A stretch of 42,708 nt of DNA, taken from the sequence record QB031384.1. One strand, written 5' to 3'. Position numbers and translations under genes: made by a program. The number at the start of each line of letters is the position of its first letter. Position 1 is the stretch's first letter. Origin of the DNA: a phage. The notes below the pieces were generated by a model. That model saw only the letters and a program-made list of their open reading frames with translations, had not been told where the DNA came from and searched no databases. Positions 26,019-30,234 of the stretch are shown in pieces.

Positions 26019-26591
26019 TTACATTGCCCAATCAGGACGCTCACCCTTACCGCAGTAAAAGTCAATCAGGTCTAGTAAGCGCGGATAATACTTCAGCGAA
26101 CTCTTACCGTCCATTTCCGCAACCTGGCGCCTACTGAAGCTGCGCCACTCTGCTGCCGTATGCTGCTGACATCCTGCACGCACTATGTCCTTACAGATAC
26201 TAATGAAGTACGTTTCTCCGTATATAATGACAGTCTTGGCGCCGCGCAGGTCAGCGCGGCGCAGGTTAGCGCCGCGCAGGTCAGCGTAGCGCAGGTCAGC
26301 GTCGCGCAGGTCAGTACCGGTCAGGTCAGCGCCGCGCAGGTCAGCGATGCGCAGGTCAGCGTCGCGCAGGTCAGCGCCGCTCAGGTCAGCGCCGCGCAGG
26401 TCAGTACCGGTCAGGTCAGCGCCGCGCAGGTTAGCGTAGCGCAGGTTAGCGCCGCGCAGGTCAGCGTCGCGCAGGTCAGTGCTGCTCAGGTCAGCGTCGC
26501 ACAGGTCAGCGTCGCGCAGGTTAGCGCGGCGCAGGTCAACGCTGTGCAGTCTTCCTAACTTATATATTTCGCAGATTTCTTGATAGTTCAT
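26019..26591 (-). CDS. Pentapeptide-repeat protein 1 (about 21 tandem A(D/N)LxG-type pentapeptides plus 70-aa non-repeat C-terminal domain)
   Basis: 190-aa ORF with an unbroken run of [15 protein letters not shown] pentapeptides after the N-terminal cap [12 protein letters not shown]. Strand chosen because all flanking genes are minus-strand. Confidence 0.8.
26238..26549. repeat. Tandem array of about 21 copies of a 15-bp unit (CGCAGGTCAGCGNCG-like) encoding the pentapeptide repeats
   Basis: Periodicity is visible directly: gcgcaggtcagcg recurs every 15 bp, varying mainly at 2-3 positions per unit. Confidence 0.9.
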
Positions 26592-26678: not shown

Positions 26679-27182
26679 CTACTTCTCCACAACTTCATAC
26701 TCTCCATGATTAGGATGGAATCCATGTAACCGCTCGACAGCCTTTCTTGCTTTAACAGCAAGGGTAATATCTGTAAACAAGCCCAAGTGCATATAAATGC
26801 CATCTACCTTTATACGCGCACGCCACTTACCAGCATTCTTATCCCAGCCTACGCCGCATATGCCGCTGGTGTTGCTCGAGTGTAGCCTCATATTGCGGCT
26901 GTTAGTGCTTTGATTTACTAACCTTAGATTAATTAACCTATTATCATCTTTAATATGGTTAATATGGTCTATTTGCAAACCTGCCGGAATAGGTCCATTT
27001 ACCATCTCATAAATTATGCGATGTAATTTGTAAGTCTTACCCCTTACCATGACCTGCATGTAACCACGCTTGTTTAAGCAACCAGCTACCTCTCCTACCT
27101 TTGAAGCACTTCTAGGTAACCTAATCTTCCAAATCAAAGCCCCTGTATCTGGGCAGTAGTTGAATATACTATTCCAATCCAT
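26679..27182 (-). CDS. HNH homing endonuclease with AP2-like DNA-binding domain
   Basis: 167-aa ORF with HNH motif LQIDHINHIKDDNRLINLRLVNQSTNSRN and AP2-like GVGWDKNAGKWRARIKVDGIYMHLGLF. Second such gene in the genome. Confidence 0.7.
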   Translation of the reverse strand: MDWNSIFNYCPDTGALIWKIRLPRSASKVGEVAGCLNKRGYMQVMVRGKTYKLHRIIYEMVNGPIPAGLQIDHINHIKDDNRLINLRLVNQSTNSRNMRLHSSNTSGICGVGWDKNAGKWRARIKVDGIYMHLGLFTDITLAVKARKAVERLHGFHPNHGEYEVVEK

Positions 27183-27378
27183 AGTATTCCCCTTCTTCTA
27201 CTACAAGATATTCACAAGGTGCAAAAGTAAACTCCTCATCTTCATCTCCTAAATCAACCTCTCCTGTGTCAGGGAAGAACTCATATACTTCGTGAACACT
27301 GCCTACCGGGAATCTATCCATGTACTCGAACATCTCGCCTACACCATATGCACTGTAGTTAAGAATGCGAACTTTCAT
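27169..27378 (-). CDS. Hypothetical acidic protein (69 aa)
   Basis: First ORF downstream of the promoter-leader cassette at 27490-27638. Strongly acidic (DLGDEDEEF, VVEEGEYYGLE). Confidence 0.45.
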   Translation of the reverse strand: MKVRILNYSAYGVGEMFEYMDRFPVGSVHEVYEFFPDTGEVDLGDEDEEFTFAPCEYLVVEEGEYYGLE

Positions 27379-27489
27379 ATTGAATCCTCTTAAGTCTGCA
27401 ACCTCACCGCGAAGTTGCTTAACTAAGAGACTTCCTTAGCGAGTCTTATTTCTCTTAGACTCTCATCTGCATCGCACTGTATTACCTGT

Positions 27490-27638
27490 GCACGGGAGGA
27501 ACCGCTCAAGCTCGTACTATCTACCCAGAGCTTTCAGGAGGGCACCGGGATTAAAGTCCCCGGTGACTAACAAGCCGCTTTGCTATCTGCATCTCGTCTT
27601 GATGAAATGAATTCTACAGCATTCTAAAACTGTGTCAA
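27490..27638 (-). promoter_or_regulatory. Promoter-leader cassette R1: sigma70-like promoter (TTGACA - 16 bp - TAGAAT) plus conserved structured 5' leader
   Basis: -35 at 27633-27638 and -10 at 27611-27616. Downstream leader contains a hairpin (CACCGGG/CCCGGTG), GCCCTCCTGAA, a second hairpin with loop GGGTAGATA, and GAGCGGTTCCTCCCGT. Homologous to copies at 34406-34528 and 35943-36080. Confidence 0.55.
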
Positions 27639-27650
27639 CACTTATTTTAA

Positions 27651-28838
27651 TTAAATTACCTCTTCCTCTTTAAAGGATTTACCAATACCACATTCGGCGG
27701 GAAACTTAACTTCAGACAGTATGCCAAAGTTAGGCCACAACTGTAGCATCCTATCACGGGCTCCTTCCATAACGTTTTTGATGAGCTTACCCGCCTTACG
27801 GGCCGTCTCTTCGTCAGCACAATCTATGTACAAACAGTCATGGACGGTAACCAGCAAACACCATTTACCCCCCATCCAATTGTCAGCTATACCAGCCCTC
27901 ATAGCCATTCCGGTTGCAATAAGCATAAGCAGGGAACCTGATCCTTGAAACGGATAGTTAGCCATCTCTGTGGGCTTAAAGTCCATTACCTGCTTACCTT
28001 CGCGCCACACCGGCTTCTGACGGAAGCGGTAGCGAGTACCGCAAGGCGTAGTGAAGTAGCCCTCGCGATAGATACGCCAGCTGCCGTCATCTGCTTGTTC
28101 ACGGCGTATAGGCTCCAGCAGCGCAGTACGGTTTACTTCAGCTGCAATGACATCCCTGTACTTAATAGACTCAGGGAATAGTGCCTCCTCGTTAGCTAAG
28201 AACTTCTCAGCGTCGGCTAAGCTAGCACCTGAGGCGAACGCCAGTCCTTTAGCGGATGCTCCATATTGTGCTGCGAAGCTGAAGGTTTTGATGGCTGTTC
28301 GCTTCTTCTTCCATCCTTTATGGTCCGGTGCATCCGGGTTATGGCAAAGCTCGTAGACTTCTTCATAAGGCATACCTTCTTGGAATGCTAGACGATAGCA
28401 GTGCATATCCGTACCGGCTTCAAGCAAGCTCAGTAATTTCTTATCACCAGTGATTACACAGCCCATTACAACCTCCATAGCTGAGTAGTCACACTGTGCA
28501 ATCATACCCTGCTCACCATAGCGGCTACGCAGAATCTGCTTAACCTTAGACTCACGCGGCAGCTGCTGCATGTTCGGGTTAGATGTTGACAGGCGTCCGG
28601 TAGTAGTTGAGCAGTGATTCGACCTGTGGTGAATGATGCCAGAACCATCTGCTGATGTAGGGATGACGTACGGCAGCATGCCCGTCACCTTACGCAGACT
28701 GCCATCCTTATTAGTCTCACGTACTTCATAGAAGCCGAGGTCCTTCTGGCGTGTAGTCATTTCTTTGTATGCTTTGAAGAAGTCTGAAGCTAACTTAGCC
28801 ATCTTGTTCCATCCCAATAAAATAATGTGCAAGGTCAT
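27651..28838 (-). CDS. DNA polymerase, family A: polymerase (fingers/palm) part
   Basis: 395-aa ORF with TGRLSTSNPNMQQLP, motif A-like CDYSAMEV, motif B-like RTAIKTFSFAAQYG and motif C VHD. Overlaps the upstream exonuclease-domain ORF by 44 nt in a different frame. Confidence 0.85.
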   Translation of the reverse strand: MTLHIILLGWNKMAKLASDFFKAYKEMTTRQKDLGFYEVRETNKDGSLRKVTGMLPYVIPTSADGSGIIHHRSNHCSTTTGRLSTSNPNMQQLPRESKVKQILRSRYGEQGMIAQCDYSAMEVVMGCVITGDKKLLSLLEAGTDMHCYRLAFQEGMPYEEVYELCHNPDAPDHKGWKKKRTAIKTFSFAAQYGASAKGLAFASGASLADAEKFLANEEALFPESIKYRDVIAAEVNRTALLEPIRREQADDGSWRIYREGYFTTPCGTRYRFRQKPVWREGKQVMDFKPTEMANYPFQGSGSLLMLIATGMAMRAGIADNWMGGKWCLLVTVHDCLYIDCADEETARKAGKLIKNVMEGARDRMLQLWPNFGILSEVKFPAECGIGKSFKEEEVI

Positions 28839-29940
28839 TCATTGCGTCCGTTCCTGTGCTGTACACAGGGCTACCATCCGCTAATGTTTGAGCACCTTTG
28901 TATTCACCGCGGTCTCCGTACTTCTCACGTAGAGACTGAGGTAGGTCCTGAATATTAACCAGCCCGTCGAAGCGGTACAGGCGTTCACCCCACTTCATAG
29001 CTTGCTCGTCAGTGTCTACTTTTATGAACTTAGGCATACCCTTATTACGCCCAGACTTATACACCCCGTCCTGTACTTCCTTCTTAATGTATTTAGGTGG
29101 GTCATAAGGAACCTTGCACTTGTACTTAACCATGCCACCATACACTAAAGCGGACATATGATAACCGCTATTCCAGTTAAACTCGAAGCCCTCTGGCAAT
29201 TCTGGCAAGAATGTCTGAAGTAACTCCCGCAGATTCCGAATAGCGTCCTCCTGCTCCTTCTGGTTTACGCGTGCTGTAGGCATATCAACGTACACGCCAT
29301 TGAACTCACAGTATGCCAGAGCTGCGACTGCCTCCATCCTTTCCCAGACCATAGGCATCTGTCCACGTTCCGCAAATACTGCGCATTGCCCGTAGAAGCA
29401 CAGCGCTGTGTTGACTATGTCACCGTTAGGCCCTGTTAAGTATTCATGTAGTAGCATAGGGTCAATGTCTGCTGTCAGAACCCCTTGCTGCCATAGTAGC
29501 TTAACGCCGTCGACTTTGTGTGACCCGCCATACTTAGGGGCAGTCTCATCTAGTGACGGGTAAAGATTCTGGAAGTCGCTGGCAATGTACTCGCCCTGCA
29601 TAGTATCAAAGACTCGACCTCCTCGTCTAAGGAACGACTCGAACTGCTCACGGGCAAAGGTCAGCGCCCAGCTAATCTCGTACGCTGCGTTGTGCGCTAC
29701 GATTAACCACGTATCATCCTGAATAGGTAGCCACTGCTTAGGGTCAGCTGCTAAGAAATCAGTTCGGGATTCATAGCGTACACTCTGCACCTCGCTGCAC
29801 TGTACAGTCCCATCCGGCATAGTCCTATCAATGCGGAAGCCTGATTCTACGATGTAGTTATCAGGGCAGTACGGAGTTGCGACCCCGCCGTAGTACGGAT
29901 GATTTTGAGTTTCAATATCCCAAATTAGAATGCTACTCAT
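28795..29940 (-). CDS. DNA polymerase, family A: N-terminal 3'-5' exonuclease part (separate frame from the polymerase part)
   Basis: Exo I motif WDIET near the N-terminus. The ORF track starts it at a TTG (29946); the ATG at 29940 overlaps the upstream small ORF's stop as ATGA. Ends 44 nt inside the polymerase-domain ORF. Confidence 0.8.
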   Translation of the reverse strand: MSSILIWDIETQNHPYYGGVATPYCPDNYIVESGFRIDRTMPDGTVQCSEVQSVRYESRTDFLAADPKQWLPIQDDTWLIVAHNAAYEISWALTFAREQFESFLRRGGRVFDTMQGEYIASDFQNLYPSLDETAPKYGGSHKVDGVKLLWQQGVLTADIDPMLLHEYLTGPNGDIVNTALCFYGQCAVFAERGQMPMVWERMEAVAALAYCEFNGVYVDMPTARVNQKEQEDAIRNLRELLQTFLPELPEGFEFNWNSGYHMSALVYGGMVKYKCKVPYDPPKYIKKEVQDGVYKSGRNKGMPKFIKVDTDEQAMKWGERLYRFDGLVNIQDLPQSLREKYGDRGEYKGAQTLADGSPVYSTGTDAMNDLAHYFIGMEQDG

Positions 29941-30089
29941 TTCCAATTACTCCGACGTGATTTATTAATGGCTGCCCGTACAATCATCTCGCTACTGTCC
30001 AGCGTGTAGCGCCTAACCTGCTTACGATTGTTAGCAATTGCTCTGATGACTTCGTAGTCTGCCTCAGTAATATCACTTTGCTTTAGCAT
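29937..30089 (-). CDS. Small basic ORF (50 aa), not in ORF track
   Basis: ATG at 30089-30087 preceded by GGTGAGGTG; stop overlaps the DNA polymerase ATG. Translation MLKQSDITEADYEVIRAIANNRKQVRRYTLDSSEMIVRAAINKSRRSNWK. Confidence 0.35.
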   Translation of the reverse strand: MLKQSDITEADYEVIRAIANNRKQVRRYTLDSSEMIVRAAINKSRRSNWK

Positions 30090-30234
30090 TGTTATTCACC
30101 TCACCTTTAAGGCCAGCTAGATGGGATTTAAGGCACTCGACTAACTCAACAATAGTATCCTCATCCAGTTCGAACATTCCTGAATCCCCCTGCTCCAACT
30201 CTATTAATTTTAAAGCTGCTTCATGTAATGTCAT
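30073..30234 (-). CDS. Small acidic ORF (53 aa), not in ORF track
   Basis: ATG at 30234-30232 preceded by a near-consensus SD, AGGAGGT, at about 7 nt. Translation MTLHEAALKLIELEQGDSGMFELDEDTIVELVECLKSHLAGLKGEVNNNAKAK. Confidence 0.45.
   Translation of the reverse strand: MTLHEAALKLIELEQGDSGMFELDEDTIVELVECLKSHLAGLKGEVNNNAKAK

Follow-up and report, generated by a model that had tools for sequence, protein, structure and literature searches.

Does a phage whose DNA polymerase gene changes frame partway along make its enzyme as one chain or as two? We asked this of Escherichia coli phage DNA in sequence record QB031384.1, a stretch of 42,708 nt (hereafter the window), in which a family A DNA polymerase is encoded on the minus strand by two overlapping open reading frames (ORFs) in different frames. 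A preliminary description, made from the sequence alone, had left three explanations side by side: an assembly indel, a genuinely split enzyme or a recoding event. The analysis below favours the split enzyme. It is very probable that the window encodes a genuinely split, two-subunit, T7-like family A DNA polymerase from two adjacent genes; an indel is contradicted by a break that recurs among relatives and by selection on both pieces, and recoding is very unlikely.

Two adjacent polymerase genes

The ORF listing confirms the layout given in the preliminary description. The maximal upstream ORF (29946..28795, 383 aa, C-terminus ...YFIGMEQDG*) ends at 28795, the maximal downstream ORF (28838..27651, 395 aa) starts at 28838 in the +1 frame relative to it, the two share 44 nt (28795-28838), and no gene lies in between. 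Read in the first frame, the coding strand at the junction is ...TAT TTT ATT GGG ATG GAA CAA GAT GGC TAA. The ATG of the C-subunit is embedded in GAT-GGC of this frame, and the product that it opens begins MAKLASDFF.... Since this ATG (28802) is the conserved start of the C gene while the one at 28838 is missing in relatives, the functional overlap is the 8 nt ATGGCTAA, and the 44 nt previously given hold for the maximal ORFs only. The N gene most likely starts at ATG 29940 (MSSIL..., 381 aa) and not at TTG 29946, judging from three features of the sequence: the corresponding upstream coding sequence (CDS) of phage P64441 is 1146 nt or 381 codons long, the N-subunit read from ATG 29940 is identical (100%) to protein cluster P0121 (381 aa, 17 member sequences), and GGAG sits 5' of this ATG.

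The C-subunit matches Pfam PF00476 (DNA_pol_A) with 105.4 bits against a cut-off of 34.3, over profile positions 101-380 of 381. It aligns to residues 556-818 of Taq pol I with motifs A, B and C in register, such that DYSAMEV, KTFSFAAQYG and VHD match DYSQIEL, KTINFGVLYG and VHD of Taq. The N-subunit alone gave no Pfam match; it matches PHROG DNA polymerase families (E 1.6e-106 and 3.9e-41), and the D and E of its Exo I motif, WDIET, are invariant in 46 homologues (Exo II and Exo III were read by eye only). All motifs named in the preliminary description (WDIET, TGRLS, DYSAMEV, K..F.F...YG and VHD) could be located (Table 1), and all catalytic motifs are intact. The DNA_pol_A profile, motifs A, B and C, an N-terminal exonuclease domain and the Klenow-like fold described below together mark the enzyme as family A.

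The break is shared by a clade of relatives

At the nucleotide level the region shares 99.1% identity with Escherichia phage vB_EcoP_P64441 and about 79% with vB_EcoP_PAS7. Both phages belong to the Slopekvirinae, PAS7 being the exemplar of the genus Cepavirus (PMC12451628), and the GenBank record of each carries two polymerase CDSs with an 8-nt overlap; the PAS7 paper makes no mention of the polymerase. Aligning both ORFs to intact homologues, as had been proposed, located the junction. When the halves are joined artificially, 99-100% of the resulting length aligns, with 57-63% identity, to the single ~775-aa polymerases of Klebsiella, Enterobacter and Salmonella Slopekvirinae. The N-subunit is collinear with residues 1-~373 of the fused homologues, and the alignment places 9-12 extra residues of the window's clade exactly at the junction (HYFIGMEQDG / MAKL) relative to fused outgroups. 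As far as these alignments tell, a fused single ORF is the usual state in Slopekvirinae, and nothing is missing from or duplicated in the split halves.

A search with the N half returned 54 clusters (P0121-P0174; 69-100% identity, 378-416 aa) from independent Logan, ENA, JGI and NCBI samples, many of them on near-complete contigs of 41-45 kb. In all 54 the stop falls exactly 14 residues after DAM, and only P0003 reads through. The last two residues, again in 54 of 54, are [D/N][G/D/E], the sole combinations that spell xAT-Gxx and thereby give a +1-frame ATG. The DNA of the junction was examined in ten split genomes (window, L001, L002, L003, L005, L009-L012); the compact junctions are all equal in spacing and keep ATGnnTAA while their flanks differ. 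When six compact junctions were aligned, the ATG and the TAA were invariant (6/6) and the bases between and beside them varied (ATGGCTAA, ATGAGTAA, ATGACTAA).

Pairwise ratios of nonsynonymous to synonymous divergence (dN/dS, Nei-Gojobori) lay between 0.04 and 0.08 in the N half and between 0.07 and 0.09 in the C half at dS of 0.7-2.8, which argues for strong purifying selection on both halves over long divergence. In neighbour-joining trees of the full-length protein and of the N half, the split genomes group together as a single clade, sister to the fused L004, and more distant outgroups are fused across the junction and have no 9-12-residue loop. The two genes are thus collinear with a single-ORF homologue, and both are inherited and under selection. 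On this comparative evidence the split is inherited and conserved, not a sequencing error, and it would have arisen once, in the ancestor of a clade that holds Cepavirus PAS7, P64441 and many metagenomic relatives.

Whole genes lie between the halves in some relatives

In L003 (ECO104 4-5-2) and in L010, an unrelated metagenomic contig, a 65-aa ORF sits exactly in the junction. Each is flanked on both sides by 8-nt start/stop overlaps, ATGAGTAA...ATGACTAA in L003 and ATGATTGA...ATGAGTAA in L010; these boundaries follow ATGnnTRA, and one of them uses TGA. The two ORFs are equal in length and have no sequence similarity to each other. Neither has a relative in the phage database outside one group of related records, and the L003 ORF, the only one scanned against PHROG, gave no match there. 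The nesting of L003 and L010 within the split clade suggests that these ORFs were inserted into a pre-existing split.

The more distant lineages L007 and L008 carry, in the same polymerase loop, a gene for a 153-aa free-standing HNH_3 endonuclease that is 76% identical between the two contigs. Here the N half runs on past its terminal DAMKGIA for 9 residues that are read from the endonuclease gene. The 3' end of that gene contains both GGAGGTG and, behind it, the GTG from which the C half begins anew, and no intron RNA was detected at the L007 and L008 junctions. An HNH gene at the break is therefore present in L007 and L008 and not in the window, where no gene separates the halves. Since whole genes intervene in L003, L010, L007 and L008 and both halves are nevertheless intact, no frameshift can fuse the halves in these genomes, which argues that this enzyme family works as separate polypeptides.

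Translation signals at the junction

Computationally, the C-subunit has a start of its own, made up of the invariant ATG that overlaps the stop and of a Shine-Dalgarno-like (SD-like) element, GGGATGGAA. The anti-SD duplex energy at the junction is -6.4 kcal/mol; the starts of 44 long ORFs of the window have a median of -5.9, and random positions -2.6. The Shine-Dalgarno energy of the junction is typical of real starts in this genome.

A U-rich 9-mer, TATTTTATT, lies 5' of the SD-like element. Across the six compact junctions that were aligned, three synonymous positions in a row do not vary in it, with synonymous divergence elsewhere near saturation. The 9-mer may be a U-rich enhancer of the downstream start, or it may reflect plain codon preference. 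The fused L004 has almost the same 9-mer and also has TATTTTAT, so the presence of TATTTTAT reflects coding (YFI).

Position of the break in the modelled fold

Sequence and profile searches against PDB chains align only from the TGRLS region on and did not thereby place the junction, so we placed it from the secondary structure of AlphaFold models of two fused homologues, P0001 (63% identical) and P0003. The P0001 model (mean predicted local distance difference test score, pLDDT, 80.9) matches the Bst, KlenTaq and Klenow large fragments in Foldseek with target-normalised TM-scores of 0.72-0.77. In it the junction corresponds to a turn (374-376) between helix 365-373 (GDAMNGLAA) and helix 377-391. 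P0003, the closest fused relative and one with the expanded loop, is modelled with helices 364-376 and 382-400, and the turn that joins them, MGKDD (377-381), is the window's break site. In Pol I, the thumb ends with two helices, the STSxxxL helix and the long one that precedes the TGRLS region. The models thus predict a break in the 5-residue turn of a thumb helical hairpin, within a clade-specific loop expansion, the step from hairpin to thumb being one that we infer. The N-subunit would then consist of the exonuclease domain and ~180 polymerase-domain residues that end with the first helix of the thumb hairpin, and the C-subunit would hold the second thumb helix, the palm, the fingers and all catalytic motifs. 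With the break inside the thumb, the N-subunit is more than an exonuclease part, and the earlier division into an exonuclease part and a polymerase part has to be corrected.

Two further features of the fold were seen near the break. The P0001 model has a very long two-stranded beta-hairpin (residues 270-294 and 304-325) in the thumb region upstream of it. PAS7-type relatives have an extra insertion of ~23 residues at this hairpin region (N halves of 404-416 aa), presumably roughly where T7 gp5 carries its thioredoxin-binding loop. The fused P0017 (886 aa, from an ENA contig of 36.9 kb) has a low-complexity insertion of ~110 residues in the EYNKDGS hairpin, which lies about 25 residues past the junction; either an inserted element that escaped recognition is read through here, or the assembly may be at fault.

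A probable two-chain enzyme and its alternatives

Taken together, we favour the following scheme. The C-subunit would be translated from its own ATG, which overlaps the N-subunit stop behind a moderate SD-like sequence. Translational coupling would probably yield the N- and C-subunits in roughly equal amounts, and, by analogy with split phage polymerases, the two polypeptides would associate non-covalently through the thumb hairpin and other inter-domain contacts. Several points weigh against this scheme. Subunit assembly, stoichiometry and the mechanism of coupling are predictions made from genes and by analogy. The SD-like element is only moderate and is weaker in some relatives (-4.0 in L011). 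The thumb assignment is drawn from model secondary structure and from the correspondence of motifs with Pol I, short of a residue-level superposition. The tree of the C half does not place L004, and the direction of change, splitting or re-fusion, is therefore uncertain. Finally, an unconventional shift at the compact junction may give a low level of fused product.

A fused product would also come from programmed +1 frameshifting, or other recoding, in the 44-nt overlap. It would give one polymerase of ~765 aa, alone or beside the separate products, with a junction-spanning peptide such as ...YFIGMEQDGKLASDFFK. In its favour, every split relative has 12 more open codons in the C frame 5' of ATG 28802, a chain made by shifting at the stop codon would be collinear with the fused P0003, and the upstream 9-mer is invariant in the six compact junctions aligned. 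However, the overlap holds no codon that could re-pair from the P site in +1, and relatives differ in the codon that precedes the stop (GGC, GAG, GAC, GAT), so that there is no conserved shift site. The junction forms no stable or conserved RNA structure (folding z = +0.62) and has no Rfam match, and the halves are intact in relatives with 190-460 nt of extra gene between them. The invariant ATG and the SD-like element fit separate initiation instead, and between the GGA and the last sense codon there are 6 nt, which, judged by prfB, would suit initiation better than stimulation of a frameshift. The preliminary description was correct that there is no classical slippery heptamer; TATTTTATT was considered as a slippery site and rejected, as it allows no +1 re-pairing and the fused L004 has TATTTTAT as well. 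We leave recoding a very small probability, and this mainly because a minor fused product could still be made.

An assembly or sequencing indel, that is, a 1-nt error that splits one continuous ORF, would agree with the single ~775-aa ORFs of most Slopekvirinae polymerases and with the read-through of the junction in the close relative P0003/L004. It would have to account for an identical break in two GenBank isolates, in several unverified GenBank assemblies (OR844702 and related records) and in the 54 clusters, for a start/stop overlap conserved across 20-30% nucleotide divergence, and for a fused relative that differs by a net 4 nt rather than 1; we regard it as practically impossible. The interrupted frame, and nothing further, would suit a decaying pseudogene in a phage replicated by another polymerase. 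This is hardly conceivable with dN/dS of 0.04-0.09 in both halves at near-saturated dS, with every catalytic motif preserved and with no second disruption in either half among the split genomes examined. A single chain might also be restored by splicing of RNA or protein (group I intron, split intein) or by translational bypassing, and group I introns with HNH genes do interrupt the same gene elsewhere in relatives L003, L004 and L007. The junction in the window, though, has no spacer (8-nt overlap), window positions 27400-30200 gave no Rfam match at E<=1, the ~13 extra junction residues relative to fused homologues are far too few for intein halves, and matched take-off and landing codons for bypassing are absent. 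We consider this route extremely improbable, and two separately translated subunits as the reading to keep.

Origin of the split

Between the junction of L004, the fused sister, and the split junction the net difference is 4 nt, so a small indel in an already expanded loop suffices to produce the split. The same loop hosts a mobile HNH gene in other lineages, which makes a history of insertion followed by loss reasonable too. The split could therefore stem from a net 4-nt indel or be the scar of an inserted element, and the two histories are equally reasonable. A short 'LAxxFF' duplication flanking the break (DLAHYF / KLASDFF) was considered as a trace of insertion and dropped, the DNA similarity being too weak. 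In a more speculative scheme, the thumb-hairpin turn would be a recurrent insertion slot open to selection rather than a passive scar: the compact split would protect against an HNH endonuclease that targets the unbroken loop of related phages, ATGnnTAA would act as a module that accepts small genes, and the products of the 65-aa ORFs of L003 and L010 would be stoichiometric with the halves and might serve at the thumb as accessory or processivity subunits. We think this unlikely, and mention it as a conjecture.

Introns and homing endonuclease genes nearby

Mobile elements are found in and around the polymerase gene of the window's relatives. In L003 an HNH-containing insert after TGRLSASNP scores 51 bits with the group I intron model (gathering score 50), and inserts of L004 and L007 in motif B, between PSFA and AQYG, score 38.8 and 31.3 bits. 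The site between SNP and N is equivalent to the known intron site 674 of phage family A polymerase genes (PMC3428280); the same source lists three sites (674, 676, 881), and the motif B site is not among them. Many distant clusters end 79 or 182 residues after DAM, at the two intron sites. The motif B site is where about 60 distant protein clusters stop, which makes an intron there look common in Klebsiella-type Slopekvirinae.

The window itself has a free-standing HNH gene downstream of the polymerase, whose protein is 31-37% identical to the L007/L008 junction endonuclease (E about 1e-21). This gene (insert 26703-27207) is not in the 99%-identical P64441. A different HNH gene, which P64441 carries between its helicase and polymerase genes (L001 5889-6314), is absent from the window (30301/30311). 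Also downstream of the polymerase module is a gene for a pentapeptide-repeat protein (26019-26591, minus strand, 190 aa, ADLRGANLR-type repeats). This region is 92% identical to P64441, compared with ~99% for neighbouring genes, and its internal repeats give multiple offset self-matches.

Table 1. Features of the split polymerase genes, their junction and nearby mobile genes. Positions without a prefix are those of the window; prefixed positions are those of the relative named.
Feature	Position	Strand	Remarks
Polymerase N-subunit gene	28795..29940	-	381 aa; ends ...DAMNDLAHYFIGMEQDG*; maximal ORF from TTG 29946
Polymerase C-subunit gene	27651..28802	-	383 aa; begins MAKLASDFFKAY...
Start/stop overlap ATGGCTAA	28795..28802	-	C-subunit ATG 28802-28800; N-subunit TAA 28797-28795
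SD-like element GGGATGGAA	28807..28815	-	GGA 5 nt 5' of ATG 28802; putative function
U-rich 9-mer TATTTTATT	28814-28822	-	codons YFI; 5' of SD-like element
WDIET	29908-29922	-	Exo I, N-subunit 3'-5' exonuclease domain
TGRLS	28587-28601	-	C-subunit
Motif A DYSAMEV	28470-28490	-	C-subunit
Motif B KTFSFAAQYG	28260-28289	-	C-subunit
Motif C VHD	27837-27845	-	C-subunit
Beta-hairpin region	~29000-29140	-	N-subunit residues ~268-325
Free-standing HNH (HNH_3/AP2-type) homing endonuclease gene	26679..27182	-	PHROG HNH endonuclease, E 7.7e-69; ~470 nt downstream of polymerase
65-aa junction ORF	L003 4175-4372	-	198 nt
65-aa junction ORF	L010 3639-3836	+	198 nt
HNH_3 endonuclease gene in polymerase junction	L007 5131-5592		
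HNH_3 endonuclease gene in polymerase junction	L008 5164-5625		
Group I intron with HNH gene in polymerase gene	L003 3278-3964	-	
Group I intron with HNH gene in polymerase gene	L004 1706-2330	+	
Group I intron with HNH gene in polymerase gene	L007 6093-6694	+	

Relation to known split enzymes

The polymerase of the window is one more ordinary case within a class of split phage genes that is already known ('genes-in-pieces'), and it opens no new category. A close parallel is gp43A/43B of the T4-related Aeromonas phages 25 and 44RR, where an essential replicative polymerase is likewise made from two adjacent genes; the two phage 25 products co-purify and are active (Petrov, Ratnayaka & Karam 2010, reviewed in PMC2988022). 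The gp43 phages also have a homing endonuclease gene (HEG) in the split of one relative and a short HEG-free junction in another, and the question whether the HEG was cause or later invader is common to both systems. In contrast, gp43 belongs to family B, is broken at another point and has an untranslated intercistronic spacer where there is an 8-nt overlap here, and gp43 is backed by biochemistry while the enzyme of the window is represented by genes.

Closer in enzyme family are the split T7-like family A polymerases of uncultured marine cyanophages and of a Synechococcus WH8016 island (bioRxiv 10.1101/325100), and that of the OM43 phages MEP401/402, which has a small ORF of unknown function between its halves (PMC10580990). 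In these, too, a podophage family A gene is in two pieces and conserved so within a lineage, and the inter-half ORF of the OM43 phages recalls those of L003 and L010. They come from other phage lineages and hosts, whereas the present clade is one of enterobacterial Slopekvirinae (Cepavirus and relatives). The L007/L008 arrangement is matched by the nrdA gene of Aeromonas phage Aeh1, which is split by mobE and whose split NrdA is functional (Friedrich et al. 2007, cited in PMC2988022): a free-standing HEG lies in an essential gene, and two polypeptides reassemble. The enzyme is a different one, and the junction in the window has no endonuclease gene. Finally, DNA polymerases can function as stable two-chain complexes, as illustrated by DNAP-N/DNAP-C of PhiKZ, a stable 1:1 complex (PMC13648687), and by an engineered split Pfu polymerase made as two chains by termination-reinitiation at an internal break (PMC3061061). 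Unlike the present enzyme, both are of family B, and the Pfu split is artificial and lies in the fingers.

Implications

The thumb is the subdomain that grips the DNA duplex, and in T7 it bears the loop that binds the processivity factor. The present case adds a two-chain family A replicative polymerase, broken in the thumb, from enterobacterial and easily cultivable phages. In annotation and phylogenetics of Slopekvirinae and Cepavirus, this pair of CDSs should count as a single split polymerase and carry no frameshift-error flag. Close relatives supply fused, compact-split, ORF-containing and endonuclease-containing versions of one and the same junction. The clade thus offers a convenient natural series in which to study how essential genes come to be split by homing endonucleases and small indels, and how the pieces reassemble.

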